Assembly: GCA_003990765.1 (NCBI GenBank)
Contig: RBNJ01000074.1
Location: 1-43,831, forward strand
Direction: 5' to 3'
Source: Jimgerdemannia flammicorona
Lineage: Eukaryota
DNA: 43,831 bases
Position numbers and translations under genes: made by a program. Shown here one piece after another: positions 1,021 to 28,445 of the stretch. The notes beneath the pieces are model-generated. The model ran no database searches. It was not told where the DNA came from and saw only the letters and a list, made by a program, of their open reading frames with translations. Each line of letters starts with the position of its first letter. Positions within the stretch are counted from its first letter, which is position 1.

Positions 1021-1311
1021 TTCTATTTCCTTGAGTTCTGCTCACAGCCATTCTCTATAGGCAGGTGGTATAGGTCTGGCTTTCTGATAAATGGACTTGG
1101 TATCACCAGTGTCAACTTTGTGATAGTACTTGGGTTCTTGATTGTGAATATCTCTGAAGTCTGTAACAAGTACTCCTTCATTCTGATACAGGATCTTGAG
1201 AAGTTGTTCTTCCAGGGGAAAGTTTTCTCTGATGGTATATGTGTACTTATTCTGATCCTTGTCTTTCTTGTGCTCAAGTTTGGTAATCTTGGTGGTAGCA
1301 TAGACTCCTCT

Positions 1312-1732
1312 TCCAGTAGATCCAAAGCCTTGTTCTCCTCTCTTAGTCTTGATAAGTTCAATGGCTTCTATGATCTTGGGCTTCTTGATTCCATAGATCA
1401 GCATCTGGCCAATCCTGTCATACTTCTTGACTTCGAATGGGGTGGTGGGGTTGTGATTCCTGACTATGAGGAAGATCTTGCCAGTATAATCAGAGTCAAT
1501 TACTTCTCCTTTAACTGAGATTTCACTTTTTGCCAGACTGCTTCTGGTCTTGATAATTCTGGTATAGTTCTCTGGCAGCTTGACTCCAATTCCAGTGCCA
1601 AGTAGTGTGGTGGTCTGTGGTTCAAGGGTAGTATCTTGAATGCTGGCAAGGTCCATTCCTATGGCTCCTTCAGTCTTATATTCTGGGATTCTGGCTTCAT
1701 GGTGAAACTTCTTGATCTTGAGAGTGATATCT
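1312..1732 (-). pseudogene. dUTPase domain within Gypsy A pol, between protease and RT
   Basis: All five trimeric dUTPase motifs: GAIGMDL, KTRSSLA, GEVIDSDYTGKI, DRIGQML and RGEQGFGSTG. Confidence 0.92.
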
Positions 1733-2099
1733 GATTCTTGTTTCTCCTTGTCATCACTGTCAGCCTGAAGCTCTGGGGGCTGGTCATCTTCTTCAGCTTT
1801 CCTTTTTGCTTCAGCAGCTTCTTGCTCATATTTCTGTTGGCAGATTTTCCTGACTTCACTGATATAGGACCAGCAGTCATTCAGATATTCAGAGCAGTAC
1901 ATCCTAGTACTATGGGGGCATCTTCCTTGAGGGGCATAGCCATCAATGATCTTGTTGTACCACTGCTCATTTATGAGCTTGGGTGTCTTGTTCTTGTTCT
2001 TATTCACTAAGTGTATGAAGACCTCTGTGTCCTCTTCATCTTCTTCCTCCATGTCTGGCAGGACTCCTTTGTGGACATTGATAGAGACTGGTACCTTTC

Positions 2100-2420
2100 T
2101 TCCTCTATAGTTGATCTGTATCTTCTGGGCATTAAGGTCAATAATGGCCTTGGCCTTGTGAAGCCATTGGTTGCCAATGAGGATGTTATAGTTGATGATG
2201 CTTATAACAATCATGTCTACTGGGATGGTAGCTCCTCCTATCTTGATGGGAACTTCTCAGATTTTGCCAAGGGGGATAGCTTGTATACTATCTGCTATAA
2301 CATAGACCATCTTGGTAGACTCTTCAATGTCTCAGCCTAGGCAGTCAATTGCCTTCTTACTCATAAGGCATCCTCCAGCACTGGTATCAATAATGGCATC
2401 AAAGATACAATCTTCAATCT
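2100..2420 (-). pseudogene. Gypsy A aspartic protease
   Basis: AIIDTSAGGCLMS (DTG/S motif) near 2360-2400, then ILIGNQWL...AIIDL flap/C-terminal pattern. Confidence 0.8.
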
Positions 2421-2899: not shown

Positions 2900-3817
2900 T
2901 CATAGTATTCTTCATCATCAGTATCACCAATCTCCTCAATGACTACTGTATTAGTTTATTCTCTGGTTCTGCTAGTATTGCTTGGTTGAGCCTTGCATCT
3001 TGTTTCAGTCATGCAATTCTTTGTATAGTGGCCTTCTTCTCCACATCTGAAACAATGTGATATTGTATTCTTCTGTAGCAGCTGCAAATATCTACACTGG
3101 TCTCCTGTTGGCACTTCAGACTTCTCTAACAACATTACTAAGGTGTGTAGTCATCTTGGCAAACTGCTTGGCAAGTTCTTCCACTGGGTCAGCTTTGGCT
3201 ACCTTGGGGGTAGGTGGGGTTGGTTGTCTGTTTACAACTGTGGCAGGTATGATACTAGTTGGCTTTGATGGCTCCATCTTGATGCCAGTTATTTTCTCCA
3301 TTGAGTATTTGGCAGGATGTCTGGCAGTCCAATATCTCTATACAAAGACCACTTTCTGATCAAGGGTCAGTGCAGCTAGAGTAGACTGGATTGCTAGGGC
3401 AATTTCAGGGTAAATTCCTTTATGGAAGGTTGAATCTGCTATTTGTTCTTTAAGGGTATTATCATAGCCAGCTAAGACAATCTGGTGGCAGATTCGGGTA
3501 TAGAATGAGTTGAGATCTTTACTTAGTCTCTGTCAGATAGTATTGAGTTGATCCTTGAGAGCTTGCTTGATCTCTTCAGTATAATATATTGTTCAGAGGA
3601 AGGCCTTTATATTGGCAAGTTTGGCTGCACCAGTATTAGCAATGGTGGCTATATTGAACTTGTCTCTGGCAGGTCCTCTGAGGCTGACTGATAGAAGGGC
3701 CAATTGTGCATCCACACCGAGGGCTCATACAGTGGTAAATTGTTCAAAGTCTTCAATGAAGGTCAGGATTGACTCTTCAGTAGTATATCTATAGAATGTG
3801 GGGGGATGCATTTCCAT
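2900..3817 (-). pseudogene. Gypsy A gag with CCHC zinc knuckle
   Basis: ATG at 3817 gives MEMHPPTFY...FIEDFEQF...SLRGPARDKF. Knuckle CFRCGEEGHYTKNC at about 3013-3054. In-frame stops present. Confidence 0.8.
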
Positions 3818-3916
3818 CTTGTCTTGAATTCTTGCAGGGGTGACTCTTGTAGTCAGGATAGTTATTGTGGGGATTGTTCATTTTTCAGCTTAAAAGTGAG
3901 GAATTCATCTTGAATC

Positions 3917-3934
3917 ACCAGCCAATGGGTACCA
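3917..3934 (-). promoter_or_regulatory. Primer-binding site of element A
   Basis: TGGTACCCATTGGCTGGT begins 3 nt after the LTR terminal CA. It is absent next to the solo LTR. Confidence 0.65.
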
Positions 3935-3937
3935 AGT

Positions 3938-5488
3938 TGTCACATAGTGGTCACTGAGTTCTTCAAATATGCCAGATTCTCTTCAAGATATATCTCTTAG
4001 ACTAACTCAAGTTTGTTATAAGCAAGTTCTTATTGAAGTACCTTCCCAAGGTCTTATAGTCCTCAAACTTCTTATCTTTAACTATCTTGTTATCTTTTAA
4101 ATTGCTTGCAAGAAAGTGTGTATATTGCACTTAAAAGACTGACTTTATTTCAGAGGAAATAAGAGAAGTATTTATACAAAATATAATTTAATGGTTGCTA
4201 AGATATAAAGCTAAATATAAATTCCAATAACTAAAATAAAATGCCAGGTTAGGAAAAACTACTAAGTTCCAGGGTCAGCACTGATAGTTGTATAGATTCA
4301 GGATACTGGTATAATTCAGTGTTATATCAGAATACCAGTGCTGAAACAATTTTGCATCACCTCAGAATGCTGGTGCTGGTATTATCCAGTATTACCTCAG
4401 AATTGATGCTGGCATTATTCAGTGTAACAAGGAACTTAGAGTGGAATGTTCAGGATCATAGAGGCTTCATCTTCATCATCAGAGGTCAGGATGTCTTCAA
4501 AGGAGATGAGGTCTGTGAATTTGTCTTTGCACATTTCACATGCTTTGATGTCATATGGGATGACATCATTGCCAATGACATCATCATGTTCAGTGGTGGG
4601 GAAATTAGGGGCTCTCCAATCTATGAGGTTCTCTTCCACAAAATAAGAGACAAATGTGGGGTCTTGGGAAGGTTTAACCTAGATACTTGGGCCTTGGAAT
4701 ACTGAGATCAATCCTTACAGGAATTGATCTGGGTTGTCCTGAAGGATGGAATGCCAGAAGTCTTCTACTTTATCACTATTGAGAGTGATAGTGGACTGGG
4801 CTTCTGTAGCCACCCTGGTTTTTAGTGCATTGATATGGTGGGATGATAGGTCTCTGAAATCTGAGACTCTAATATACTCCAAGTTGGGGATCGACCATAG
4901 TGCATGCCTGAAGATCTGATGGATCTTCTTAGCTATTCTCATTTCACATATATCTATAGAAGTGATATCTTGTTGCTCTTGAGTACTGGCTTATGGGAAC
5001 TCCTGGTAGAGGAGGTTTCCTATTTCATACTCCTGCCATATTTGGAGGTATTCAGTAGCAATAGTGATCCTTGTTTCTATTTCACAGCAGTAGAGGATAT
5101 AGTGATAAGGGTCACCAGTACCCAGGTTGACACTAGGAGTCCTTCTTGAGCAGGTCCTCATGGCTCTTCTGATGTCTTGGAATATACTTTCTTTGACTAA
5201 GATGCCTTGGTAGTTTCTTGACCTTGAGGTTTGGTAAGCAGCAGGTATTTTGTTTATGGTAAGTCTTTGAGCTATTTTGGGATTGGTGGGTCTTGTTGGT
5301 TACTACTTCTGTGGTTCCTTGATTCTTCTTTTATATTCCTCAAGATACCATACTGTGGACACAATGACTCACAGTTAGTCATCATTGCTCATCTTGTATG
5401 CTATATAATCTTCTTGTGCTCTGATCTGGTGGCTTGCAAGGAAAGGCTGTCTCCTATACTGATGTAATCATTCTGAGTCACTATTACA
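3938..5488 (-). repeat. 5' LTR of element A (1551 bp)
   Basis: TG...CA ends and colinear with 16469-17998. On the minus strand, TATAAATA at 4176-4169 and AATAAA at 4149-4144. Confidence 0.93.
4436..5392 (-). pseudogene. LTR-internal (U3) accessory ORF of family A, about 270-320 aa, unknown function
   Basis: One uninterrupted frame joins the track ORFs 4715-4942 and 4436-4639 and extends to an ATG at 5392. The stops are mostly CAA/CAG in the solo LTR copy. Confidence 0.65.
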
Positions 5489-5519
5489 ATATATATCTAT
5501 AATTAGTTAAACAGATTTA

Positions 5520-6025
5520 AGAACTAAAGAAGAACCAGATGATAGTAATAATAAATGACAGTACTACTATCTATATTTATAGAATATCTAGAAGAAGACC
5601 CAAGAGAATTCTTAGATACTTTTAAAGGAATTATAGCTCTAAAGAACCTTGCTCTTAGAGATAAATTATAGTCTTCAAGATATATCTGAGAGAGTTAGTA
5701 AAGGAATCTTTATCAGAATATTAAATAATTCAATTTCTGATCTAGAATAAGCTATAGCTGATATACACTACTATACAGAACAATATGAAGCTATCTCTTA
5801 TAGGTTTATTCAAAAATATATAGATATAGAACTTATCACAAAGTCTAGAAATCTTTTATAAAAATAAAGATGAATTCTGAAGAATTCCCATGAGCATTCT
5901 TTATAAGAATTCAGAAGAGAATATATACTATCAGATTCAGTATTACTAACTAAGACAATATTGGTCCAATGATCTTTATGAATAGAATTTCTCTCAATAT
6001 TACTCAGCATATCTATACTCTTAGT
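5520..6025 (+). pseudogene. Heavily decayed gag fragment related to family B
   Basis: Aligns by eye to 8020-8490, e.g. GGTCCAATGATCTTT..GAAT and GAAGACCCAAGAGAATTCTTAGAT versus AAAGACTCTAGAGAGTTCCTTGAT. Confidence 0.7.
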
Positions 6026-6192
6026 TTTATAATATATGTATTAGTTCAATAAAGGTAAATTATAAGATTGGGGCTGCTATATAAATTAGATTGAGCCTCC
6101 AGTTACTTTATTAAAAAGCAATAAAATGTTCAATAGTTTCTAGTTCAAATTTGTATAATATAGACAATTTTAGTAATTTTCTAATTAAGTAA

Positions 6193-7461
6193 TATGACAA
6201 ACCAAGATGTACTACCCAAATTATACCTTAGCTAGATGATGCAAACAATTAGCCAGATGATGTAAATATACAGCATAGTAATCAGTAACCATTGCTGCAG
6301 AAACTATATAAATAGCTGGACTATCAGATAAGATACATCTATACAGGACCTACACAACCTGCCATAAGTAGCAAATCTATAGTTAGCTATGTATATAACA
6401 ATCAGATAGCAAGCAACTTGTATAAATTACCCCAGAGACAAGAGTGAATAAACCTCAGTTCTGAAATACAAAGTAAAAGACAAGTCTGCCTATTACACTT
6501 TGAGAGATATACTTGCAAAAAGCCACTTAATTCTAAATAAATTGGATTGCAACACTTAGGAGAAATGCCTGCTCTACAGCCACTACTAGGAGATTGTAAG
6601 CTTTGCCCCTTTCCCACTCTGGTCCACTTTCTGATACAAAGAATGAGTTTGTTTTCAAGAGAAGCCTGCTATGATTTGGTTTGCTTACCAGATAAGCCTG
6701 AAGATTTACTGCCAAGTTCAAGAAAAAACTTCACTGCCTTTTAAGTAATCTGCCACTTAAGAAATAAGCTGCCATTTTCAAGAACTTCACTGATTCAGAA
6801 AGAATCCATATCATCTGCTGTTTCTAAGTTATCTGCCATATTCCCAACAGAAGCTGCTGATTCAGAAGGAACCTGTACCATCCATTATTCCCAGAAGAGC
6901 CTGATTCATGATACCCAAGTTATTTATTCTCAGTGAGCCTGAGTTATTGAGTTATCTGCCACCAGTACAATTTCCAGTGAAAAGAATCCATGCCATCCTC
7001 TATTCCCAGTGGGCCAAATTGAGTTATCTGCTAGGAATCACATACTTTTGGAAATTGCTGTCACCTAAGAAGGAAAAACTGCTAAAATTGCCAGACCATC
7101 ATACACAAGATCGTTGTGCTATATAGAAATTGCTTGCCACCCAAGAAGGAGGACCGCTAAATTGCCAGACCATCATGCACAAGATTGTCATACTATATAT
7201 GAAATTCTGCCATTCCCAGTTGATCCAAGAAGGAAACACATTCACACAAATCACTGCTACACCTAGAGAACCATCCTAATTAGGAAATCAACACACAAAT
7301 TGCTTGCAGACATCCAGCTTTTACTATTATACTACTAAACACCAAGGACCTCAGAAATCTTAAAACATTTTGTTGCTTTTGACAAAGTAACTGGAGGCTT
7401 AAGCCAAACTACATCCACCCCCAATCTTGTAATTTGCCTCCATTGAGCCAGGCATGTTATA
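6193..7461 (+). repeat. 5' LTR of element B
   Basis: Colinear with 15038-16341; the termini have decayed to TA...TA. TATAAAT at 6421, AATAAA at 6447, and an internal ~75-bp duplication at about 7068-7230. Confidence 0.93.
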
Positions 7462-7463
7462 TT

Positions 7464-7481
7464 TGGAGGCTCACCTGGGAA
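7464..7481 (+). promoter_or_regulatory. Primer-binding site of element B, tRNA-Pro-like
   Basis: TGGAGGCTCACCTGGGAA lies 2 nt after the LTR and matches the tRNA-Pro PBS TGGGGGCTCGTCCGGGAT at 13/18 positions. Confidence 0.6.
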
Positions 7482-7500
7482 GATTTCAAAATTGACATAA

Positions 7501-8925
7501 ATCTTCAGCTCACAAGAACCCATAGTCAAACTGGATATATTTGATACAATACCAATCTCTGTTACGATAGGAGAACCAGTTATCACCAGCATTTGGACAG
7601 AAAGAGAAGTAATCACATCAAGACTTGCCAACTACCCAGCATCAGAAGGATCCCAACCAGAACCAGAAGGTAGTACAGCCAAAAATCCCCAATCAGATCA
7701 ACTAGACAATTTAGACAGCTCTGCTAGAAACTTTGAAGAGCTTACACAAGAACTAGAAGATCTTATCACATGAAACTGAGACCTTACACCCAGACACCCC
7801 ACACCAGTCCCACCAATCTCACCAATAGAACTCTTACTACAACCCCTTACAGAGTTAGAAGTAGCTCCTACAAGAATACCTAGGCTTATTCTATCTTGTC
7901 CAAGGTCCAGAACACCATCTTCAAGATATCCAAGCACTCCCATCTCCAGTGACAGTTTAGAGAGTGAATCAGAATCAGAATCTGAACCTGAACCAGAATT
8001 AGAAGAAAGTAATGATGAAATGGCCACCTCATTGCCAACCTTTGCAGGATACCCAGAGAAAGACTCTAGAGAGTTCCTTGATGGAATTGAAGGAATCACA
8101 GCCTTGAGGAATCTCTCAGATGAAAGAAAAATTGTCATCTACAAGGCTCAGCTTAGAGAACTAGCTAGAGGGATTTTCCATCAAACAGCAAACAACCCAG
8201 ATTCAGAACTGGTAAGACAGATACAAGCAGCAATATCCTATGAGTTAGAATATGAGGCTATAGTCCACTGGCTCATTGAGAAGTATGCAGGAAATGAAAC
8301 CTGCTACAAGGCTCAAGAATCTATTATGGGGATGAAGATGAATCTTAGAGAATCACTCAGAGCCTTCTTCACAAGAATCCAGAAGAGAATGCATACTGCT
8401 GGGTTCAATGCCACTAACCAGGACATCATAGGTCCAATGATCTTTCTGAATGGAATTCCCCCAAACATTGCCCAACATGTTCACATTCTAGGCATCAGAA
8501 GGTCTGAAGAGCAAGTAGATGTAGCCCAAGGATTCTTTGATGTCAGACAGGGAACTACCTAGAGTGATCATGATAGGAAAGAAGATAAGGAAGACATCCT
8601 GGTCAAAGCCCTATAAGGACTCCTTCAAGGACAAGAAAGATCCAAAGAAAGAAGGCCAGCAAAAGAAGGAAAGAAAGACAGAAGTGAAATCTAAGACCTC
8701 AGCTCCAAGTTGGATCAATTGGTTGGATAGATTGAAAAACTCACCACATGCGAAAATCAGGGCTACTCAGACAACAGAGGATACCCACCACAGAGGAACC
8801 AAGGTTATCCACCAAGGGATAATAGGAATTACCAGCAGGAAGAAAGAAGGTACCCCATCTGAGACAGAGCCCAAGTCCAATGCTTTCACTGTGGACAATT
8901 TGGACACTATGCCACTGAATGTGAC
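7501..8925 (+). pseudogene. Gypsy B gag with CCHC knuckle
   Basis: LPTFAGYPEKDSREFL capsid-like start at 8020, in frame with an upstream Pro/Ser/Glu-rich segment from 7501. Knuckle CFHCGQFGHYATEC at 8881-8922. Confidence 0.85.
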
Positions 8926-9534
8926 AATAAAAGAAATAACCAAAGGGACTCAGAATCACCAAACTGAAGGAATGACACTCAGTACAAGAAGACTGAAGCC
9001 CATCCTGTTGAATATTTTGAGAAAGCAAGCAATAGTGAAGACTACAGTGACCTAGACTTATACCCCACCAAAGTTACTACCTGAAAAACAGTCTACCCAG
9101 TAGAGAAGAGGAAGAGACCTATAGGAAGGCCATCCAGGAACATTAGCAGAAGAATTATCCAAGAAGAGGATGAAGAACATGAAGAGGAATAAGCAGAAAC
9201 ACCTCCCTGAACCCCTCACCCTTTGTCCTTGAGACAAATGAGTTGCCACCAGAAGATGAAGAAATGGAACAAGAAGAATGGGAATCTATTGCTCCAAAGT
9301 CCAAGAAGAAGTGCACTCCAAAGACCATGCCTAGAGACATTTACAATGAAGCTTGACAGAAGATTCAAGAAGTCAAGATAGAAGTCCCTCTCCTGCAGTT
9401 CCTGCAACTGATACCAGTAGGAGTCCAAAACAAATTGCTGAGAACCACCAGGTCTAGTACTGGCCAAGTTCTAATCCCACAGCAAGAGCCTGCTCCCATC
9501 CCTATCCAAGCAGCTGAAAGTTATGTCAGTACCT

Positions 9535-9900
9535 ACTTGCATGGAGACATTGGAGGACAAAAAGCAAAAATCCTCATAGTCACAGGAGCAGCTGTCTGTA
9601 TTATTGCCAAATGATTCTTGGATACCCTCCAATGGCCCATTGATGGATCATCCAACCTCAGCATCATAGTAGTATATGGAGCCCAAACTCAACCTCTTGG
9701 AGAAGTATGAAATATCACCATCTCTCTTGGACACATTCAGTTTTCTATCCTGAAAGCTGTTGTCACTGAAGCTGTCACCTATGATATGATTCTTGGCACC
9801 AACTGGATGAAGGAAATGAATGCAGTTGTTGATATTAGTCAACAAGTACTCAAGTTTGACTACTGAGGCAAAAAGTACAGAGTTAAGGTAACTAGCTATG
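9535..9900 (+). pseudogene. Gypsy B aspartic protease
   Basis: KILIVTGAAVCII (catalytic D read as V), then YDMILGTNWM...AVVDI. Confidence 0.8.
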
Positions 9901-11214
9901 AGTAATTAAAGAAGAAGAAGAAGGTCACTATTCAGGAGGAATATGCCAGCAGTGAAGAGCCTACTACAAAAGAGGAAGAAGAATCTGAAGATGGAAATGA
10001 TCCCAGACTCAACCCCTGAATTAACCTGGTGGATGACAAACCAGAAGACAATGTGTGGGCCAAGAATACCATCTCTATTACCATTGGAGCTATTGTAGGA
10101 GAAATCAAAGGATGCCCTATTTGCCTCAAGAGACACAAGTGTCCCAAGCATTCCTCCAAGATCATGGGAATAAGAAAATCACCTAGCACAGCCTGCCCAG
10201 AGTGCAGAAGAAAGAAGAAGAAATACAGACATATTCCAGAAACACCTGCAACCAAAGCTGCAGAAGTGCAAGCAATTTGGGAACAAGAATCATCCAAGGA
10301 AGAAGAAACTTCTGACCAAGAAGTTCCTGAACAAGAAGTACCTGAAGATGAAGAGGTCCCCAAACTCATTCTCTGAGATGACCCTGCTGGACACCACCTG
10401 AAGACAATAATCCTTAGAATATAGAAGAAGGACCTAGTATAATCACCATTATTCCCAAGAAAGAAACTCACCAAGAAAAAGCCTTTTGGCTAGGAAGATG
10501 TCCACACCAAATGATCTTCCACTCCCCCTGAGACTACTGCTATCAGTATCATCTGTTGGACCAGCAAGAAGGACAGAGACCCCAGAGACCAGAACCCCTA
10601 ACCACACTTGCACAGTCAACCACCTTCCAAGAAGTTATCACAAGATTACAAAGTCGATTTAGAGGACAAGGATTCTTCACTTGGACAGAAATATATCCCT
10701 TATCTACTCTTCCACCTACCTATGATCAAGATGGGTACTGATTCCCAAGACAAAAAGAAATCAACAACTGAGAATATCATTTCTGAGCAATGGGATACTG
10801 CAACTATGAAAGACACTCAGACTGCTGAGACTGCAGGCATCAGAAGATCCATCTCAGTCATGATATTGCAGTTCACACCTTGAAGAAAAGAGATAACCAA
10901 AGCCAGATCCAAAAAAGCCAGATCTGAAAAAGCCAGACCAAAAAGTCAGGAAGAAGGACCCTCAAGATCAATGATTTAGGTGAAGACATTCTAGCTCTCA
11001 TCAGACATATAACCTGTCAAGGATGGGCAGAAGATGCCACCAACTTCATGGAAGCCCTTGACCCTACAGGATGAAGGGGAATCAACTATCTCCGAGACCC
11101 CTCTACTGGAGCCAAATGGCCCACCTCAACCTTAGAGCTTAGAGGCTCTCTACTAGTGGAGCTTCAGTCTTAGGAAAGCCCGAACTCAGTAAGGATATTA
11201 CCCAGTATACACTG

Positions 11215-11610
11215 TTGCACCCCAAGGCCAAACCCCCAACCAAGGCCCACCCAGAAGATGTAGAGTATAACCTCTACAGTCTGGAGGATGAATCTATCAA
11301 ACCTAGAAAGACCTTCATGATCAGAACCAGATTAGCCATACAGCCATCTCAGGGGGCTTATATCCAACTGACCTTAAGGTCTGGACTTGCCAGACAAAGA
11401 ATAACTATAGAAGGAGGAACCATTGACTCAGGATACACAGGCAAGATCAAGGTCATCCTATACAACAGAAATACAGAATGGCACCAAATTATTAGAGGAC
11501 AGAAAATTGCTCAAGCAGTCTTCATGAAGATCAAAACTCCACAATTGGAAGAAGTCTCTGAACTAGTTGAAAGAACAAGACAACCTAAAGGATTTGGAAG
11601 TTCAGATAGG
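11215..11610 (+). pseudogene. dUTPase domain within Gypsy B pol
   Basis: LRSGLARQ, GGTIDSGYTGKIKVIL, GQKIAQAVF and RQPKGFGSS; motif 1 has decayed (DVEYNL). Confidence 0.9.
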
Positions 11611-12014
11611 AAGGAAGTATATCTCCTTCAAGTCAACTACCTCAAAAGGAATATTCTCCAACAAGTGTACCAGCAACCAGTCAGACTATACAAGAATCTG
11701 ATCCTGGAGCCTGGAGAACAAACTACCTTTCAAACCTTTGTACCACCCAATCCCAGAAACCTTTTCTTCAAGCCCAAGGAAGATATTCCCCATCTGGATA
11801 TAGAGGGATATACATTCTCTGATAAGATGAACCTGGTACACTCCCGAGCAACCAACCAAAGTTGGGAAACCATCATTTTGCTGAAAGGAACCATTATAGG
11901 GCACCTGGTACTCTTTCTTAACTGAACTTATAGAGAAGTTTATGAACTAAACCTATCAGGAAACGGCAAAAGGTCCTAGAAGAAAGGAAAGGCCCCTCTG
12001 CGACCCAGGAGACA

Positions 12015-13410
12015 GTGAAGCCTTCCACCAACATTGGAGAAGAATTGACACCTCAACAACAACAACAACTAGTAGAACTTCTCATCAAATATCAAGATAT
12101 CTTCACTACTGATTATAGCAACCTGCCATACAATCTATCATATCATTACAGCATAAATACAGGAAATGAAACACCCATCCAGCAGAAACCCTATAGAATA
12201 TCCCATCACTTGAAAACATTTGATAAAGAGCACATTTAAGAACTTTTAGACAATGGGGTCATCTGACCCTATACTAGTCCCTGGGCTAGCCCTATACTTA
12301 TTGTACTAAAGAAAGGAGGATGGAGACTCTGTGTGGATTATCCAAAACTCAATTCAGTCACCAAAAAGGATGCCTATCCTTTGCCCAGAATTGATGACCT
12401 TTTGGATCAGCTACAAGATGCCAGATACTTCAGCAGTATAGACCTCTTTGCAGGATTCCACGAAATCCCCATAGACCCAAAAGACATTCAAAAGACAGCC
12501 TTCCTTGCTCTAGGAAAACTATTTGAATATCTCCGAATACCCTTTGGACATTGCAATACACCCCCCACCTTTCAGAGGATGATGAATTCAGTCTATGCTC
12601 CCTTGATCCACCACTGCCTGATTGTATACATGTATGATTTCAATATCTATTCAGCAAAATTCGAAGAACACCTACACCATCTAGAGAAATTCTTCAAGCT
12701 CCCCCATAAGAACCACTTAAGGCTGAATGCAAAGAAATGCTACTTTGGGAAACAGAAACTTGAATTTCTCAGATTTATAGTTTCAAAAGAAGGAACCCAT
12801 ACAGATCCAAAGAAAACTAAGAAGATCAACAATTGGCCAAAACCCAAAACTCTGAAAGAAACACTATCATTCCTGATGCTAGTATCCTACTACAGAAGGT
12901 TTATCAAAGACTTTGTCCAAATCACAACCCCAATTTGAATCCTTTTCAAGAAAGGAGTACTATTCAAATAGACAGAAATACAAGAAAAAGCCTTTAGAGA
13001 ACTTAAGAACTGCATGACTATAGCACCAAACCTTGTGTACTCCAATCTACAAAAGCCATTCATCTTGTATACAGATGCTTCTAAAGATGGCCTTGGAGCA
13101 GTTCTGACCCAAGAAGGACCCAATCAACAGCACCATGTGATAGCTTATGCAAGCAGAGCTACCAACCAGCACCAGACAAATTTTGGTAGTACCAAACTAG
13201 AATGTCTTATAGTCATATGGGCAGTCACTCTGTTCAAGCATTATCTTATTGAAAAAAGATTCACCCTGATTACAGACCATATAGCCCTCAAATGGCTATT
13301 CAACTACAAGGAACCCACTGGAATCCTAGCCCACTGGATCCTTATCCTTCAGGATTACAAAATCACCATTATTTACAAAGTAGGGAAAGCCCACAACAAT
13401 GTTGATTACT
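12015..13410 (+). pseudogene. Gypsy B reverse transcriptase and RNase H
   Basis: SPWASP, CVDYPKLN..TKKDAYPLPRIDDLL, PFGHCNTPPTFQRMMN, VYMYDF, FILYTDASKDGLGAVLTQ, LITDHIAL. Confidence 0.95.
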
Positions 13411-13449
13411 TTTTCACTAGCTCTAATGAACTAGAAGAAGGGTGTCCCA

Positions 13450-14480
13450 AGGAACTACACCCTAAAGGAAGCTCCTCAGACCATCAAGGCACAAGAAGAT
13501 CTCATCCAAAAAGAACATCAGAAAGCTCATTAAGGACAGGCAAATATAGAAAAGGAGTTGCAAGCAATACACCAACATTGGCCCAACCTCAGAACACAAG
13601 TCTGGAACATAGTTAAGAAATGTGACACCTGCCAGAAGTACCAAGGAAGGAAGAACTATCAAGCTCCACTGCAACCAATCATACCACTAGATAACATCCT
13701 TCAGAGATGGGGAGTAGTTATAATTGGACACCTACTGGTTATACCAAGAAGAAACAAATATATTGGAACATCTGACCAAGTGGCCCAAGGCTTTTCCAAT
13801 GGAAATCACAGATGTTTTAACCATTGTAGGCCTCCTCCATGAACTCACACTTAGATATGGACTCCCAGAAGAACTTATCTCTAACTGAGGCACAGAATTC
13901 ATCAATAACATAATTACAAGTTATGCCTGAATTCACAAGATCCACCTCAAAAGGACCACATCATACCACCCTCAGACCAATGGCATGACAGAGAGAATAA
14001 ACCAGACCATCAACAAAGAACTTACCCAAGTCAATCCTACAAATTGGGACCTCTGCTTACCTGAGATCCTATGGGAAATTTGGAACACCCCTGCTGCCTC
14101 CACTAAACAAAAGCCATTTGAAATGATATTTGTCAAGAAAACCAGAACTGCTGACCATGAGAATCTTAGAGACCTCCTCAAGAAGGCAGAACAGTTATAT
14201 AATCAGGCCCGAGGTCAGATTATTAAAGCCCAAGAAAGATAAAAGAAGTACTATAACCAAAGACAGAAGGATCAGGAGATCAAGATTGGAGATCGAGTAC
14301 TAGTTTGGAGGAGCATAATTGAAATGAATTTTGCCACCAAACTGGAACCCAAATGGGAAGGACCTTATCTTATATGTATATAACATCAGAGGAACCAGCA
14401 TCTATTTAAGAAGTATGGATGGACAAATCCTGAGAACACTAGTATACATCAATCATCTCAAGATATACCTTTCCCCACAT
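13450..14480 (+). pseudogene. Gypsy B integrase
   Basis: WPNL..VKKCDTCQK zinc-binding half, GTEF, YHPQTNGMTERINQT and the KLEPKWEGPY (GPY/F) module. No chromodomain seen. Confidence 0.92.
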
Positions 14481-14481
14481 C

Positions 14482-14997
14482 ATGAATCAGAGAATTGACA
14501 ACTGCCTTCAAACTCTTATTTTCAGCTCATTTCAATCACTACCAGTTCCCCTATCCCAATTCTGAGAAGTCAATGGAAATACTCTCCAAAAGATCCAGAT
14601 TCACCAAGAGAATCTTGTCCTGGCCAGACAGTTGCTATAGGTCTACCAACTCCAGACCCATTATGCCATTGGAGAACAATTGCAGAACCTCCCAGTTCCA
14701 GAACAAACATACATCAGAAATACCACAGGACTATTAAGAAGAAATACCACTACTGCAGATAGGCTGTACACTCTTTATAAGCAAAACTCTGCAGCCCTGA
14801 TACAAGTACAATTCTCCTGACATAATGCATAAGGAATGAACCTAGCCATCTACCAGAGCATCATCAATGCTGTTGAAATACTATTCCCAGAGAAAGAAGA
14901 AGAACCTTTAGAATAGAGCAATCATGATATAGATGATAAAGATGATAGAACAGATATTGATGCAGAAGATGCTTATTCATACTGGAATGATGACTAA
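14482..14997 (+). pseudogene. Accessory ORF3 of element B between integrase and PPT (171 aa, acidic tail)
   Basis: A single frame from ATG 14482 to TAA 14997. Its 5 internal stops are each one C-to-T change from CGA/CAG/CAA. Missed by the ORF track. Confidence 0.7.
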
Positions 14998-15037
14998 AGG
15001 ACAGTCTGAGGACAGACCATTCTTTAGTGAGGGCTGA

Positions 15038-16341
15038 TGTGACAAACTAAGACATACTACCCAAATTACACCTTAGCTAGATAATACAAACAATTAGCTA
15101 AATGACGTGAATACATAGTGTAGTAACTAGCAACCATTGCTGTGGAAACTGTATAAATAGCTAGACTACCAGATAAGGTACATATATACAGGACCTGCAC
15201 ACCTGTATAGGACCTGCACAACCTGCCATAAGTAGCAAATCTATAGTTAGCCATATAGCAACCAGATAGCAACCAACTTGTATAAATTACCCTAGAGACA
15301 AGAGTGAATAAACCTCAGTTCCAAAATACAAAGCAAAAGACAAGTCTGCCTACTATACTTTGAGAGATATATCTGCCAAAAGCCACTTAATCCTAAAGAA
15401 ATTGAATTGGAACACTTAGGAGAAACACCTGATCTACAGTCACTACTAGGAGATTGTAAGCTTGCTCCTTTCCCACTTTGGTCCACTTTCCAATACAAAG
15501 AACAAGTCCATTTTCAAGAGAAGCCTGCTATGATTTGATTTGCTTACCAGATAAGCCTGAAGATTTAATGCCAAGTTCAAGGAAGAACTTTGCCATCTTT
15601 TGAGTAATCTGCTACTTAAGGAATAAGCTACTGTTTTCAAGAACTTTGCTGATTCAGAAAGAATTCATATTATCTGCTATTTCTAAATTATCCACTATAT
15701 TTCCAGCAGAAGCTACCATTTCAGAAGGAACCCATGCCACCCATTATTCCCAGAAGAGCCTGATTTGTGACACTCAAGTTATTTGTTCCCAGTGAGCCCA
15801 AGTTATTGAGTTATCTACTACTAGTACAATTCTCAGTAAAAAGAATCCACACCATCCTCTATTCTCAGTGAGCTGAATCAAGTTATCTACTAGGAATCAT
15901 ATACTTTCAGAAATTGCTGTAGAAAAAGTACTAAAATTTGCTATCACTTAAGAAAGAAAAAGCACTAAAATTGCCAGACTATCATACACAAGATCATCAT
16001 GCTACACAGAAATTGCTCACCATCCAAGAAGGAAGACTGCTAAATTGCCAGACCATCATGTGCAAGATTGTCATACTATATATGAAATTCTGCCATTCCT
16101 TGACCCAAGAAGGAAACCCATTCACACAAATCACTGCTATATCTAGAGAACCATCCTAATTAGAAAATCAACACACAAATTGCTTGTAGATATCCAGCTT
16201 TGACTATTATACTACTTAACACCAAGGACCTCAGGAATCTTAAAATATTTTGTTACTTTTGACAAAGTAACTGGGAGCTCAAGCCAAACTACATTTACCC
16301 CCAATCTTGTAATTTGCCTCCATTGAGCCAGATATGTTACA
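15038..16341 (+). repeat. 3' LTR of element B
   Basis: TG...CA ends, preceded by a decayed purine tract AGTGAGGGCTGA (15026-15037). Confidence 0.93.
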
Positions 16342-16468
16342 GTAGTAATCTGGTATAATATATATAGATAATTTTGGTAGACCTTTTGTATAAAATAGAT
16401 TTCTCATTAATTTGACAATTTCTTTCTTAATTAGATTGTATAGTGAGATAGATTCCTTATATGTTTAT

Positions 16469-17998
16469 TGTCATATAGTAGTCACTGAGTCCTTCAAATA
16501 TGTCAGGTTCTCTTCAAGATATATCTCTTAGACTAACTACAAGTTTGTTATAAGCAAGTTCTTATTGAAGTGCCTTCCCAAGGTCTTATAGTCCTCAAAC
16601 TTCTTATTTTTAAACTGTCTTGTTATCTCTTAGATTGTTTGTAAGAAAGTATGTATATTGTACTGAGAGGAACTGACTTTATTTCAGAGGAAATAAGAGG
16701 GATATTTATACAAAATTTAATTCAATAGTTGCTAAGATATAAAGCTAAATATAAATTTCAATAACTAAAATAAAATTCCAGGACAGAAATCTACTAAGTT
16801 CCAGAGTTGGCACTGATGGTTGTACAGATTCAGGATGCTGGTATAATTCAGTATTATCTCAGAATACTATTGCTGGCACAATTTGATATTATATCAGAAT
16901 ACTGGTACTGATATAATTCAGTATTACCAAAGAACTTTAGAGCAGAATGTTCAAGACCATAAGGGCTTCATCCTCATCAGAGGTCAGGATGTCTTCAAAG
17001 GAGATGAGGTCTATGAATTCATCATCATCATATAGATTGTGTGTTTTGTATATATTGTGTGAGATGATATTATTACCAATGATGTCATCATGTTTGGTGG
17101 CAGCAGTGGCAGGAACAAGGAGATCTGGAGCTCTCCAGTCTATGAGGTTCTCTTCTGCAAAATAGGGAACAAATGTGGGGTCTTGGGGAGGTCTAATCTG
17201 GATACTTGGGCCTTGGAATATTGAGATCAATCCTTGCAGAAATTGATCTGGGTTATTCTGGAGAATGGGATGCCAGAAGTCTTCTACTTCATCACTATTG
17301 AGGGTGATAGTGGACTGGGCTTCTGTAGCTACTCTGGCTTCTAGTGCATTGATATGGCAGGCTGACAGATCTCTGAAATCGGAGACTCTAACATACTCCA
17401 AGTTAGAGATTGACCATAGTATATATCTTAAGACTGATAGATCTTCTTATCTGTTCTTATTTCATGTATATCCATGGGAGTGGCATCTTGTAGCTCTTGA
17501 GTGCTGGCCTGTGGGAACTCCCAGCAGAGGAGGTTTCCTATTTCATACTCCTGCCACATTTAGAGACAATGGTGATCCTTGTTTCTATTTTATAGTGATA
17601 GAGGATAAAGTGATAAGGATCTGTAGTACTCAGGTTGATACTAGGAGTACTTCTTGTGTGGGTCCTTATGGCTCTTCTGATGTCTTGGAATATCCTTTCT
17701 TCAACTGAGGTACCTTGGTGATTCCTTGACCTTGAGGTTTGGTAAGTAGCAGGCATTTTATTTGTAGTAAGTCTTTGAGCTATTTTGGGATTAGTGGGTC
17801 TTATTGGTTGCTGTTACTGTGGTTTCTTGATCTTTCTTTAATATTTCCTGAGATGCTTGTACTGTGGTCACAATGACTCACAGTTGGTCATTATTACTCA
17901 TCTTGTATACTGTATGATTTTCTTGTACTCTGATCTGATGGCTTGCAAGGAAAGACTATCTCTTGTACTGATGTCATCATTCTAGAGTCACTGTTACA
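16469..17998 (-). repeat. Solo LTR of family A
   Basis: TG...CA ends and colinear with 3938-5488. No PBS or PPT adjacent; flanks TTAT/ATAT (possible 4-bp TSD with one mismatch). Confidence 0.9.
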
Positions 17999-18284
17999 AT
18001 ATATAACTTCTGTATAATATTTCTAATCTTAATATTATACAGATAATTTGGCAGATTTCTTAATTAGGTAGATAACTTATATAATATAGATTCTTCCTAA
18101 ATCAGCAGACATCTCTTCTTTATTAGAAAGTAGACTAGAATAGAAATAGGACAAAGCTCACAGCTTCTCAGTAGTAGCTTATTGATAGATATATCTTTTA
18201 AGTATCTCTCTCCAGTACCATTCAGGTTACACAACCTTTGGAAGGCACTTACAACATCATTTTTGGAGAAAAGAGACTAGTAAC

Positions 18285-20309
18285 ATGGCAATCAACAGGC
18301 AATCTGAGGTGTGTACTGGGCAGGGTGGCCCAAGTGCTTTTGAATAGCAGCAGGTGGAAAGGGGCCTGGGCCTAGGGGGGGATATGAGAGGACTGCTGGT
18401 GGGAGGATGTGGAAGGGGTAGAGGTACTGGTAGAGACCAAGGGTCTGGGAGGGTGAGCTTTGTGGAGGGAGTGAGGGGAAGACAGCAGGTGTCAGGGCTG
18501 GAGGGCTGGCTGCAAAAGGGCAAGGAGAACAAGTAGGTGGTGGGGCATGGGGGAGTAGCCCTTGGAAGAGGGGGCAGTGGAGCTGGGGGAGTAGCAGCTG
18601 GGGGGAGTGTGACTGCTGATGGTGATGAGACTGCCAATCTGGAAAAAAATCCAGATGTGATAGCTGATGGCAAGGCTGAGTAGCTGAGGCTTAGAAGATA
18701 AGGGGATTTGGCAGATGGTGTAACAGGCCTAGCAGTGGCCCCATTACTCAAAAAATCGATCTCAGCATTCGTGGTTACACTGTGCTTTCAAGGCTTAGCA
18801 GTGATGATGAAAATGATACTGGGGCTTATTGCTAAGCAGGTGGCAGGAGCTGCATCAGTGAAGTTTTTAAAGGGACTGGAGGGTATGGAGGTGGGTTTTG
18901 AGGAGGCTGAGCCACTGGAGGATGCACTGAAAGTTGGGTTGGTAGTTGGGGAGGTGTGTATTCCAATAGCATGGTACCTGAAATGGGATCTGAGGGTGGT
19001 CCAACTGCTGGTGAAAGGAGTGCCCATGGTGATAGCAGGGGAGATAAGAAAGAGAGTTGAAGAAGTCATGGCAGAATATGGAGAGGTGGTGGATATTGGT
19101 TTCAGGGTCTGGGAAGGGACCTCACTCAGAACTAGTGATGTGGATGTGAGGATTCAACTGGCAGGGAAAGAGGCTACTGGGAAGGCAAGGGACTGGCCTT
19201 CAGTGATGGTCTGGGGAGCAATTTTGTGCAAGGTGATGAGGGTGAAGAGAAGTAAGGAGGAGAAAGAGAATTTATTAGAAGCACTTGAAGAATTGAGTGG
19301 TACTATAAAGTGGTGAGCTATAGCTTGGAAGGCCTTTGTGGAGTCGATGCACTTGGAGGTAGTAGATGGAAAGTGGATTTGAGTGGACAGGGTGCAGTGG
19401 GAAAGAGTGCAGAGGCAAAAGAGATAGAGGGATCTGCTGGCTAAACTGGGAGGCAGACCACTGGAGGATGAGGACAAGATGACAGGCATGGAGGGGGCCA
19501 AAACGAGTACCTGGGCTAGCAAGCAGGGTGGAAATGATGGGAAGGAGACAGGGAAGGAGAAGGAGGTGATAGTTGGTGACCTGTATGCTGATGGTACCTT
19601 TGAGGTTTGGGAGGAGACCTGGGAGGACTCCCCCACCCCTTCTTCTCTTATCAGGTATGGCCCAGCTTTCTGAAACAAGGTAGTGGAGGATGTGGCAATG
19701 AGGGGGGCTCAAAGGGTGAAATCTGGTGTTCCAGAGGTGCTGACTGAGGAACAGATAGTGGTGGCCAGAGAGGAGGAACTGGTGGATGTCCCTGAGGTGT
19801 GGGATGAGGTTGTGAGTGCTGGAGCTGACACCACAATGCTGGACAGAGGGAGGCCAGTGACCCCTGGAGGGAAGGAGGTGGGGAACCTACTTTGGATATA
19901 CAGAATTATGAATAACCTGGTGGCAGAAGAGTTGGGGGAGGTGGACTTGCGAGTGATGGGGAATGAGCACTGGGCAAGGATATTGCAGGGGGATGGAGTG
20001 ATGATGGCACTGAAGGCAGAAAATCTTGTGGTATATCTGGAGGAGGAAGGGTATGAGATGGACAAGGAGCAGGAGGCAGAGATGGTGGTTGTCACTGGGG
20101 AGAGGGCTGAATACTGCTGGAACAAGTGTCATGGATTGCAGCTTTGGCAGGAGGCATGCATTGAGTACCAGGAGGAATTTGAGGAAAAGGTGGATGGGGA
20201 GATGACCGAGATGTTGGCTGGATTGGAGGCTCAGAGGGTGGAAGAGGAGGAGATGATGGCAGAACATAATCTGGATATGGCACAGGAAGTGATAAACATA
20301 GAGCAGTAG
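18285..20309 (+). pseudogene. LINE ORF1 (about 674 codons, one frame, premature stops)
   Basis: Track ORFs at 18354, 18708, 19479 and 19683 are all in frame with ATG 18285. A central LLVKGVP...EYGEVVDI segment resembles an ORF1 RRM; the C-terminus is Glu-rich. Confidence 0.75.
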
Positions 20310-20339
20310 AGATTGACTGAGAACAAAACATACTTCATT

Positions 20340-23300
20340 ATGAACAGTATAACCAACATTTTTTCTTTGAATGTGAATGGGTTATGGGGTGCAGTTAGAT
20401 GTAGGAACATTTTTACTTGGCTGAAGGGATTGGAGGCCGATCTCTTCCTCATGCAGGATGTCAGGGGTGAGGATGATTCTAATAGGATGGAATGGACAAA
20501 GGAATGGGGAGACATGGTGATTTGGAGAGGTAAGGTTGGGATTCTGGTTCAGAAGGGCAGAGGGGAGATATGAGATATGAGGAACTGAGAGGAGAGACTG
20601 GGGTGGATGTGCTTGGGGGAGATTTCAATATGGTTCGGGATATACTGATAGATAGAACTAATGGAGGATGGGGTGCTGAGAGCAGGAGTGGGGTACTGGC
20701 AATGTGGGAGGAAGTAGAAAGACTTAGTGCATAGTAGATGCTGGTAGGGGGTACTGGGGGGATAGAAGGGTTTATACACATTGGGTTGGGGGCCTGTGGA
20801 CTAGGATCGACTGGATTCTAACAGCCAGCTGCTGGGGATGAGATGTCTGGAAGGTGCTGGAGGTGGGATCACTGGGGCCTTTTGGGACAGGGGTGCTTTG
20901 GGGGAAGTGAGGATGGACCTGGACATTGGCACCTAAATTCCTCTATGTTAGATGATAAGTCTCAGTGGAATGAGTGGACTAAAAACATTCAGCTGAGGGT
21001 GGAGAACTGGCAACAGGAGGGCACTTTCATTGAGGTTTGGTGGATGAGTATGAAAGAGTTGGCCAGGATTTACTAGAGTGAGGCAGGTAAGGAGGTGGGG
21101 AAGCAGAGAAGGCATAGAGTGCAGTGGGCTTCTACTAGATTGACTAGGCTTCTGGAGGAGTGGGCAAGACTGGTAATGTTGGAAAGAGAAGATGATTAGA
21201 GAGTCTTGAGAGTGAAGATGGAAGTTGGAGAACTACAACAGGTGCTGAAGGAAGAGAAAGAGGCAAGGGTGCAAAGCTTGGTGGCATGGCTTCATTGGCA
21301 GGTACTGGAGGAAGGGGAGAGGCCTTCCAAGTTCCTCACAAAGGCCCTTAGGGCAAGAAGGGTATAACAATGGTGGGAAGGGGTACTTGACTTGGATGGA
21401 GTACTAGTGTATGGGGTGCAGGACATTCTTGGATCATTGAAGGAGCAATGGAGTGATTTGTAGAGTGAGGAGAAGGGTGGGGTGGATGCTAATGCCATTG
21501 ACCAAACATTGGAGGATTGGTACCTACTACAGGTAGAGGGGCTAGGCAATCTGGTGATACCTGTAACAGAGGATGAGATCCACCAGGTTCTTGCCACGAC
21601 AACCCCAGGTATGGCACCTGGGGAGGATGGTCTGCCCTGGGGCTTCTGGAAGCGAATGGTTGGAGTCTCAGGTATGATAAGAGAGATGATGGCATTGTGT
21701 GACTCTATACTCCAGACAGGGAGATGGGTGGGGGAGCAGGACCTTGGACTGGTAACACCACTTTATAAGAACAAAGGAAGGTGTGAATATTGGAAGAACT
21801 GGCAGCCAATAATGTTGCTAGACATGGACAGAAAGCTGGTGACCAAAGTGGTGGTTGCAAGGCTACAGAAGGTGGCCTAGCAAGTGGTGGGTGTTGAACA
21901 GAGAGGATTTGTGGGTAGTTGACTCATAAGGGATGGCACAGCCTGGGTACATGGAGTTATTGAAGGGGCTAGAGCCTATGGACTAGACAGATGCCTAGTC
22001 TTCTTAGATCAGGAGAAGGTTTATGACCGGGTATGATGAGTCTGGCTGGCAAAGGTACTGGATAGAACAGGGGTACCATGCTAATTTTGGGCAGCAATGG
22101 TCAGCCTACTGGAAGGGAGTAGGGCTGCACTCATATATAATGGACATAGAGAGATAGCATTCTCCCTGGGTAGGGGAGTGCCCCAGGGGGACCCACTGTC
22201 CCCCATTTTGTACACCCTTTCCCTGGAACCTCTGATGGACAAAATTAGGCAAAGGATAGTGGGGCTCTCTATCTATGACATTGGGTGGAAAGTTGGGGCC
22301 TTCATGGATGACATGGTGGTTGGTTTGGGATCAATTGCCAATGTAGAGGAGCTCAAGAAGATAGTGGAATAGTATGAGGAGAACTCTGGGGCTAAGTTGA
22401 ATTAGCACAAGTGTGAAACAAAGATACTGGGCAACAGACTGATGGGAGGGGAAGTTATAGGAACAATCATCCCCACTGGTGAGGCAGTGTGGTACTTGGA
22501 CATCTATTTGTCAGTCTTGGATCGATTCAGCCCAGACTTTGGTGGGAGCAGAGAATTGGCATTTGGGAGGAGGACCTGTGGGGTTGGGGGGGAAGGCACT
22601 TTTCTCTAGTGGGGTAGGTCTCGATTTTGAATGTATATTGGTTGCTGAAGCTGTGGTATTTGGCTTACTATCTGGATTTCCCAGTCTGGGTGGTGAAGAG
22701 ATTGTTGAAGGTGGCAAAAGGATGGATTTGGGCAGGCAGAAGGAGTCAGATTGGTTAGGAGACCTTATCCCTACTGGTGGCAAGAGGTGGTCTTGGGCTA
22801 GTGGATTTTTTCAAATGACTTCACTGCTTGAAGGCATGGTGGCTAAAGAGGGCAGTGGAGCTGTGAGGAGGAGGATGGGTTCCTCTACTGCAGAAGATCT
22901 GGGAGAGGTAGACATCGCTGAGAGGCTCAACTGGCAATCTCCTCTCACTAGTTGGACTTTGAAATACTGAACTATTGCAATATAGAGGATTCTGGTGGGG
23001 AATAGTAAAGGGGGCTCACTGCATTAATATTCACTGGCAGGGGAATGAGGGGAAGGTAGCTTGGGACCTGGTAATGTGGAGATGGGATAGTTTACTACTG
23101 GGTAGTATTCCTTTAATTAAGTTTGATATTGGTGATAGAATAGAATACCAAAGGGGACCAGGCCAGGATCTGTGGCCTAGCAGTTGGCAAGGAGTTGGAA
23201 TTGGAGAAGAGTGGAACTAGTAAGGTGTTTGGACCTAGAGTGCCACAGTGTATAAGTGGATGTCACCGAAGTATTGGGTGGTTTGGTGGCAAATGCTGTG

Positions 23301-28010: not shown

Positions 28011-28201
28011 AAAATTGAAATGATATTGACTTTTTCTCCTTTATGGATTTAGATTTATTTAGAGCTACTATTTTTAAAATAAGCTTGATTTTTTCTTATA
28101 TCTAAAGTATATAGTTTCTTCTTTTATAGTTACTCTATATTTTTTGAGTTTAGATCCTAAGATTAGCTAGATATATATTTCTTTAGATGGTTAAATAATA
28201 A

Positions 28202-28445
28202 GTTTTTGTTTTATTTTTTTATTTTTTTATAGTTACTCAGACTTCATTATTTATTACCAAACTAATCTATATCTATATAATATATAGTAACTCTGTCCTC
28301 TATTCAATCCCCCTGGAAGGTCCACTCTTCCCCACCTAAAGATTACCAGATTATTAACTACTATAACCCTATTACTACTTTGCTTACAAATTTCTTCCTC
28401 TAGATATTGATGATGACTACTCTGGAGACCCTATCCCATCTACTA
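28202..28445 (-). mobile_element. 5'-truncated LINE 3' end relic
   Basis: The reverse complement matches LINE 23810-23919 (AGGTGGG...GGGGATTGA; GAAGTC..AGT.ACTAT plus A-tail). Confidence 0.7.

Follow-up and report, generated by a model that had tools for sequence, protein, structure and literature searches.

The 43,831-nt stretch of DNA analysed here, referred to as the window, probably carries two dead copies of a genuine gene that sits wholly inside the LTR, in U3, of a dUTPase-bearing Ty3/Gypsy-type element and whose family is under selection elsewhere. This judgement covers coding capacity, selection and the location in the LTR and in U3, and is kept apart from the expression model and the function considered below. 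The LTR gene occupies ~810 nt of a 1.55-kb LTR and is present in a 5′ LTR (copy A1) and in a solo LTR (copy A2). Genome annotation masks retrotransposon LTRs, which are regarded as promoter and terminator modules without coding function. Solo LTRs are the commonest relic of LTR retrotransposons. A conserved gene located in the LTR would be duplicated with each insertion and survive LTR–LTR recombination.

The LTR and its element

Self-blastn of the window aligned positions 3937-5498 with 16468-18008 at 81.8% identity over 1591 columns. The two copies share their first nucleotides, TGTAA(T/C)AGTG (from 5488 in A1 and 17998 in A2), and their last, CACTAT(G/A)TGACA (to 3938 and 16469), which form an imperfect inverted repeat of the start. 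The main features of the LTR and the element are as follows.

3938..5488, minus strand: family A LTR copy A1, 1551 nt, 5′ LTR of a truncated element; starts TGTAATAGTG, ends CACTATGTGACA
16469..17998, minus strand: family A LTR copy A2 (solo LTR), 1530 nt; unrelated DNA on both flanks
3922..3934, minus strand: primer-binding-like site TGGTACCCATTGG, starting with TGG, 3 nt after the end of the A1 LTR
3338..3877, minus strand: gag-like first frame of element A1, with stops (read with X at stops)
1042..2256, minus strand: protease-dUTPase frame of element A1 (Pfam dUTPase 1e-26; RVP_2 1.3e-4)
6192-7460 and 15037-16340: LTR pair of family B, a complete element, verified in the window

In a test of the LTR termini, A1 was bounded by TGTAATAGTG and TGTGACA, giving TG...CA, with the primer-binding-like site beyond. 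The initial annotation had ended the LTR at the ORF stop; the A1 LTR instead runs from 5488 to 3938. No tRNA match was found for TGGTACCCATTGG, and there is no tRNA gene within the window. The gag-like frame of A1 aligns with the first ORF of the related family B (BLASTP E 5e-9, 25% over 155 residues), and a Pfam search of this frame returned no match. The RVP_2 match in the protease-dUTPase frame scored 22.3 bits, with a cut-off of 20.3. Within the window, the pol domains of family A comprise PR (RVP_2) and dUTPase only; in family B, dUTPase is followed by RVT_1 and then by RT_RNaseH.

Similarity to A2 stops at the same nucleotide as the LTR end, and the DNA beyond is unrelated. Because the two copies have common ends and the primer-binding-like site and gag-like frame follow A1 only, A1 and A2 look like a 5′ LTR and a solo LTR, respectively. 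The same observations, with both ends common to two copies and element sequence following A1, bear out the earlier proposal that the gene is inside the LTR. No convincing target-site duplication was found around A2 (TATAT versus ATAAA), the window contains no 3′ LTR of family A, and no pol sequence lies upstream of A1 or A2.

A single decayed frame in two copies

The features of the LTR gene are listed below.

4436..5248, minus strand: decayed LTR gene in A1, 270 codons plus TAA; start codon now ATA (5248-5246)
4993-4991 (TAA), 4717-4715 (TAA) and 4681-4679 (TAG), minus strand: in-frame stops of the A1 gene, from the ORF reading and comparison with A2
4359..4423, minus strand: 33-nt tandem repeat, directly 3′ of the A1 gene stop codon
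16937..17756, minus strand: LTR gene in A2, with ATG kept at 17756-17754
near 17566 (10-nt deletion), near 17433 (1-nt deletion) and ~17562-17560 (TAA), minus strand: lesions of the A2 gene
16838-16926: 35-nt repeat in A2, counterpart of the A1 tandem repeat

Three minus-strand ORFs of A1 (4991..5299, 4715..4990 and 4436..4678, stop to stop) are collinear in one frame. The initial annotation was right that a single minus-strand frame without a frameshift runs to the TAA at 4436 in A1, and the peptide strings that it quoted are present in the A1 translation. Over 5248..4439, the coding frame contains 3 stops versus 14 and 24 in the other sense frames, and the antisense frames over the gene contain 10, 13 and 27. 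When the A1 gene was shuffled with its dinucleotides preserved, 0 of 5000 shuffles had three or fewer stops in any sense frame; the best frame had a mean of 13.2 stops and a minimum of 5. The coding strand has a high A content (A 0.33, G 0.18). By tblastn, residues 1-271 of the relative P0002 match 5248-4439 at 68% identity (E 1.6e-119).

The limits of the gene required correction, from 5392..4436 to 5248..4436, as the intact relatives start at a Met-Pro aligned with position 5248. The ATG at 5392 is common to both copies, as had been observed, but it does not serve as the gene start, since in-frame stops lie downstream of it in both; translation from this codon reads MSNDD* in A1 and MSNNDQL* in A2. 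It is also upstream of a TATA box, the TAA of which ends the open frame in L001, a related locus described below. The three A1 stops do correspond to glutamine codons in the solo LTR, where A2 has CAG, CAA and CAG, and the ATG reported at 17756 is indeed there in A2, opposite the ATA of A1. The A2 gene had been taken as open; the 10-nt deletion, the 1-nt deletion and one TAA distribute it over three reading frames. Given the stops and lost ATG in A1 and the deletions and stop in A2, both window copies of the LTR gene are pseudogenes.

A1 and A2 are 83.9% identical in the ORF and 85.4% and 88.4% identical in the rest of the LTR, so the ORF is preserved no better than its surroundings. The ORF substitutions between them comprise 113 transitions and 15 transversions. 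Their dN/dS carries no selection signal (omega 0.47 in frame, 0.52 and 1.06 in the shifted frames). The divergence of the two copies is mostly decay after insertion. The A1 stops read as CAR-to-TAR changes, and the pattern points to inactivation of the copies by C-to-T/G-to-A transition decay together with small deletions. CpG is almost missing in A1, in A2 and also in the intact L001 ORF.

Contig pieces matching the LTR and ORF were present in four public runs (two soil metagenomes and two organisms), numbering 1930, 407, 184 and 58, and are 80-99% alike to the A1 LTR and ORF. The family is therefore abundant elsewhere. As a guess, the dUTPase layout, the soil sources of the runs and the composition hint at a fungal host. 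Coverage of the A1 region by these runs is absent in bins 5509-5575 and thin over 4437-4570. The contig pieces have loose ends at 5475 and 3937. In one run, X1, the differences from the window comprise 70 A>G, 43 T>C, 40 G>A and 27 C>T. Where the run contigs differ from the window, A or T is more often on the window side, a bias that fits transition decay of the window copy.

A small protein family under selection

As query we used P0001, the A1 frame read through with X at the stops. A protein search gave 4 hits at E ≤ 0.01 among 291 candidates, the best being P0002 (271 aa, E 4.9e-113, 68% identity over 94% of the query). Against 1.84 billion cluster representatives, 6 reached E ≤ 0.001; these include P0010, a 920-aa repeat protein that was matched in 7 short stretches and was set aside. 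A profile search found 11 relatives at E ≤ 0.001 among 8000 scored. All relatives come from short ena or jgi contigs, with 'hypothetical protein' as their only label. The contig that encodes P0008 is 4848 nt long. Of 8000 sequences scored in a search of longer proteins for fused forms, none reached E ≤ 0.001; this argues weakly against fusions.

Scans with the family profile produced 92 pattern matches and one relative (L001) in metagenome_contigs, 31 pattern matches and no relative in viral_contigs, and 23 pattern matches and no relative in genome_contigs. L001, the only DNA locus recovered, is 1345 nt long and contains an open frame of 343 codons from stop to stop, or 323 from its ATG. The intact natural relatives are P0002 (271 aa), P0008 (342 aa), P0011 (325 aa) and the L001 ORF (323 aa), all of which have a Met-Pro start and an LNFxL end. 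In a 13-row alignment, the Met-Pro falls in the same column in six rows (P0002, L001 ORF, P0006, P0008, P0011 and P0013) and the remaining seven begin further in; the conserved start and the C-terminal region are both present in 4 of the 13 sequences. The motifs WxEYEI, HQIFRH, DNPDQ, FxGP, PQDP and the terminal LNFxL recur down to 27% identity. With intact-frame relatives in existence, four of which retain both ends in the alignment, the suggestion that the ORF is protein-coding is upheld.

Comparison of A1 with L001 (Nei-Gojobori, 266 codons) gave a dN of 0.374, a dS of 1.53 and an omega of 0.244, from a single DNA pair aligned by protein and with dS near saturation. Out of frame, the dN/dS values are 1.11 and 1.39. 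Differences at codon positions 1, 2 and 3 number 100, 66 and 134. The initial annotation had proposed looking for a codon-position bias between subfamilies, and these counts, along with a dN/dS of 0.24 in frame versus 1.11 and 1.39 shifted, display one. Together, the comparisons show the gene to be a member of a small protein family whose frame is open, and by its codon changes under purifying selection, in other element lineages.

Promoter and poly(A) motifs and a probable location in U3

Three motifs in the A1 LTR define its putative transcription signals.

5328..5335, minus strand: upstream TATA box TATAAAAG, candidate LTR-gene promoter, 87 nt before the start codon position
4169..4178, minus strand: second TATA box TGTATAAATA, candidate genomic-RNA promoter, 258 nt after the stop codon
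4144..4149, minus strand: AATAAA poly(A) signal, 19 nt after the second TATA box; consensus-based

The TATAAAAG octamer also occurs in L001, 65 nt before the ATG; A2 has TATTAAAG at this site (17843-17836). The downstream TATA-AATAAA module aligns in five sequences (A1, A2, L001 and the 5′ and 3′ LTRs of family B), and the aligned block includes ~45 nt before the TATA and TCAGTTC after the AATAAA. The module lies ~230 nt from the LTR start in family B and ~1310 nt from it in family A, and the extra LTR length of family A holds the ORF. By tblastn, the family B LTR contains no homologue of the LTR gene. The gene is thus dispensable for such elements, since the related family B does without it.

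The AATAAA at 4144..4149 likely marks the U3/R border. If the genomic RNA takes its promoter and poly(A) signal from the TATA-AATAAA module, the LTR gene would be in U3, because the ORF lies upstream of a module homologous to that of the family B LTR pair. A U3 location, as first proposed, accordingly stands as a motif-based placement, with the ORF ending 258 nt upstream of the module. The frame is closed upstream by stops at 5305-5300 in A1 and 17816-17814 in A2 and by the TAA of the TATA box in L001. Closure within the LTR in all three DNA copies confines the gene entirely to the LTR and rules out a start upstream of the PPT. Consensus motifs suggest that the LTR gene has its own promoter and poly(A) site.

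Alternative explanations

The position of the gene relative to the two TATA boxes could also be read in another way, in which the ORF lies in a very long R, the upstream TATA (5335-5328) is the genomic-RNA promoter, the ORF is the first cistron at both RNA ends and the downstream TATA-AATAAA module acts as a poly(A) signal only. The retention of TATAAAAG in both A1 and L001, a distant relative, and the A at -3 relative to the ATG are consistent with such an arrangement, as is the spacing of 153 nt between the LTR start and the upstream TATA, which is similar to the ~230 nt of the family B module. However, the downstream module keeps its own TATA in all five aligned LTR sequences, in family B this downstream TATA is the only such module beside AATAAA, and A2 reads TATTAAAG at the upstream site. 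An R of ~1.2 kb would also be unusual and counts against this arrangement, which we regard as unlikely. A more radical reading would divide the 1.55-kb unit, leaving only the last 300-400 nt as the true LTR and making the ORF an internal ORF0-like frame or a 3′ ORF that belongs to a tandem element further upstream. Plant Ty3/Gypsy elements do carry extra ORFs before gag, as described in the available text of PMC3485330, and the window has neither a family A 3′ LTR nor a clean duplication around A2. Yet both copies start at the same nucleotide, and this start forms an inverted repeat with the shared end. An ORF0 would be expected after the PBS, whereas here the PBS-like site and gag come after the unit. 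Neither copy has pol sequence before it, and the promoter module is downstream of the ORF. The division of the unit is therefore highly improbable.

The two remaining explanations concern the origin of the frame. Capture of a host gene, which the LTR would then carry as a passenger that does nothing for the element, would account for the failure to match any known family or fold and for the ability of family B to do without the gene. Against this, all relatives are proteins of short ena or jgi contigs, none with an NCBI or UniRef source or a host-gene name; L001, whose protein is 54-60% identical, has the same layout of TATA, ORF and TATA/AATAAA; and the omega of 0.24 was obtained between LTR-borne copies, A1 and L001. 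We give capture a small chance. That a T-poor strand left the frame open by chance is barely conceivable and is refuted by the results: the A-rich coding strand does lower stop density somewhat, but no shuffle among the 5000 matched the frame, and intact relatives down to 27% identity occur alongside the codon-position bias.

Protein features and structure searches

The first 45 residues have a net charge of +5 to +8 in three of the four full-length members, with the fourth at +1. The acidic core is predicted to be helical. It is followed by a tail of 58-125 residues with a net charge of -15 to -25 and with D-L-I-x-F-like and LNFxL motifs. The four full-length members contain no hydrophobic segment (top 19-residue Kyte-Doolittle mean 0.47-1.07), and the protein is not an envelope or Sag-like membrane protein.

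Pfam returned no family at E ≤ 1 for P0002, P0008 and the L001 ORF, and none at E ≤ 0.01 for the window pieces of the LTR gene. A sequence search of the PDB gave no match at E ≤ 10. Two AF2 runs produced the same helix order, with mean pLDDT values of 57.4 and 60.4 and pTM values of 0.50 and 0.51; these models are weak, and the fold searches rest on them. Foldseek with the weak models found nothing at E ≤ 0.001 in the PDB and BFVD. VIA on the two weak models gave best Z scores of 4.5 and 4.8, which do not reach the background that the tool states for helical models. In the ESM Atlas, the best feature score was 0.83 (none ≥ 0.9) and the best TM was 0.33.

Acidic tails that include bulky hydrophobic residues are typically seen in activation domains. 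The basic N-terminus, the helical core and the acidic tail with its D-L-I-x-F and LNFxL motifs are the reasons to suggest, tentatively, that the protein could work in the nucleus as a trans-acting regulator or adaptor, with the element or host silencing as its target. Blocking of host silencing or help with particle assembly can be offered as guesses at an alternative role.

A proposed model for a gene carried by every LTR

With the gene in U3, a single copy would be present at the 3′ end of the genomic RNA, from which reverse transcription would place it in both LTRs. This follows the retroviral replication scheme, in which a U3 gene is present once in genomic RNA and at both ends of the DNA. 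The LTR gene would be transcribed from its own TATA box, 65-87 nt before the ATG, and its mRNA would be polyadenylated at the AATAAA of the LTR itself. Each LTR could then be a self-contained transcription unit of ~1.2 kb, comparable to MMTV sag under the U3 promoter P2.

It is possible, though we hold the idea with considerable doubt, that every LTR, solo LTRs included, is an autonomous gene (TATA, 270-340-codon ORF, poly(A)) for a new trans-acting factor. If so, this factor would be an activator of the element promoter or a blocker of host silencing. LTR genes of the MMTV type would then have had an independent origin in a Ty3/Gypsy lineage outside the vertebrates, probably a fungal one, and thousands of dispersed LTRs would form a reservoir of the factor. 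If the gene is active, solo LTRs could go on producing a trans-acting protein that affects the family or the defences of the host. If this is true, vertebrate viruses would not be alone in having the gene-in-U3 layout known from complex retroviruses. With no Pfam entry, solved relative or named member in the collections searched, the family is a target for the discovery of new retroelement function.

Comparison with known systems

Full-text searching for ORFs in retrotransposon LTRs, mostly outside subscription journals, yielded only retroviral cases (MMTV) and internal extra ORFs; an earlier report elsewhere may exist. The U3 of MMTV holds the sag/naf ORF, and its U3 promoter P2 can drive Sag without the main promoter P1, according to the accessible part of PMC9412291. 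The same part of that paper describes a dUTPase encoded beside the protease. To the extent that this source covers it, MMTV sag/naf is the closest analogue in layout, with an ORF of several hundred codons in U3 and a second promoter upstream, and MMTV and element A are further alike in having a dUTPase that adjoins the protease. The LTR gene has no sequence match in the PDB and, in searches with the weak models, no fold match there. Sag is a membrane glycoprotein and is membrane-anchored, whereas the LTR-gene protein is without a hydrophobic segment. The carrier also differs from MMTV, being of Ty3/Gypsy type with no env in view, in an apparently non-vertebrate host.

Other retroviral genes reach into the LTR from outside. 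HIV/SIV nef and foamy-virus tas/bet are 3′-end accessory genes that overlap U3; foamy viruses use an internal promoter for tas/bet, and the transactivator Tas has an acidic activation domain. The nef and tas/bet genes start upstream of the LTR and overlap it, whereas the gene of element A is wholly inside. The searches, whose fold part used the weak models, gave no homology of the LTR gene to these genes.

Among plant Ty3/Gypsy elements, the text available for PMC3485330 places ORF0 of Retrosat2, RIRE3 and RIRE8 internally, upstream of gag-pol, and that available for PMC6431247 places the extra ORFs of Ogre in the internal region; taken together, the plant extra ORFs are placed either before gag-pol or after pol. 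Both sources, in the same portions, have these extra ORFs evolving faster than pol (PMC3485330, PMC6431247). As far as these descriptions go, the plant extra ORFs resemble the LTR gene in being lineage-specific, in having an unassigned role and in belonging to long-LTR elements. They differ in position: a plant-type ORF0 would lie between the PBS and gag, whereas the gene of element A comes before the promoter module and the PBS-like site.

In bdelloid rotifer LTR elements, ORF3 genes follow pol, as stated in the accessible text of PMC5408684. A dUTPase between PR and RT is described for rotifer and basidiomycete elements in the sections available of PMC5408684 and PMC2864245. On these partial accounts, the rotifer and basidiomycete elements share with element A, as far as its pol sequence in the window extends, the dUTPase layout and also the capture of an extra ORF. 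Their extra ORFs follow pol and none is placed in the LTR in the text at hand, whereas that of element A is in the LTR. The gene described here, whose protein family is without known relatives, is a complex-retrovirus-like LTR gene in a Ty3/Gypsy-type retrotransposon.

Decay of the family A LTRs

The 5′ LTR of the truncated family A element (A1, 3938-5488, minus strand) and the solo LTR (A2, 16469-17998, minus strand) hold two CG dinucleotides in ~3.1 kb, and the intact ORF (69-1040) of L001, a metagenome locus carrying a relative of the LTR gene, has 4 CpG observed against 50 expected. Arginine codons of the relatives appear as cysteine or histidine codons in A1 and A2, and most C/T differences fall at CpA (67 of 104) and most G/A differences at TpG (48 of 83). 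The near absence of CpG, together with these codon changes and sequence contexts, suggests that cytosine methylation or a RIP-like process drove decay in the host.

The LTR ORF ends in an acidic tail.

4437-4570: C-terminal acidic tail, end of the LTR ORF

This tail spans 58 to 125 residues among relatives, carries repeated D-L-I-x-F-like motifs in P0008, an intact 342-residue relative, and has indels between A1 and A2 that stay in frame. In the putative U3, positions 5378-5353 are well conserved between A1 and A2 and include CTAAC, GTGAGT and CACAG, which in sequence resemble branch-point and splice-site consensus motifs.

The family B element

A complete element of the related family B lies between A1 and A2.

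6192-16340, plus strand: complete family B element, with LTR pair, PBS-like site and pol domains
7051-7212: 74-nt tandem repeat in the U5 part of the LTR
11143-11925, plus strand: dUTPase
12267-12938, plus strand: RT
12972-13616, plus strand: RNase H

The LTR at 6192-7460 is 84% similar to its partner at 15037-16340, a PBS-like TGGAGGCTCACC is present, and the domains run in the order dUTPase, RT, RNase H. No homologue of the LTR gene was found in the element (6192-16340). The LTR shares the TATA/AATAAA module of family A, placed only ~230 nt from the LTR start and followed downstream by a U5 of ~1 kb.

Other repeats and a possible host gene

Positions 18000-24000 form a GC-rich block (GC 0.45-0.52) with a strong skew of G over C (0.34-0.53) and long plus-strand frames whose translation resembles a non-LTR retrotransposon; three of these were compared with Pfam, without a match. 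The strongly AT-rich stretch 26000-32000 (GC 0.18-0.34) contains inverted fragments that match family B, both its internal part and its LTR, at 70-72%.

32593-36109, minus strand: long frames of 496, 529 and 147 residues

By appearance these frames look like a host gene, their sole Pfam match being a weak one to Ion_trans in the last piece, which at 17.1 bits falls short of the cut-off of 25. Direct repeats at 24692-25891 and 41455-43831, ~17 kb apart, are 72-80% alike and show partial internal duplication; they are possibly the LTRs of a third element.
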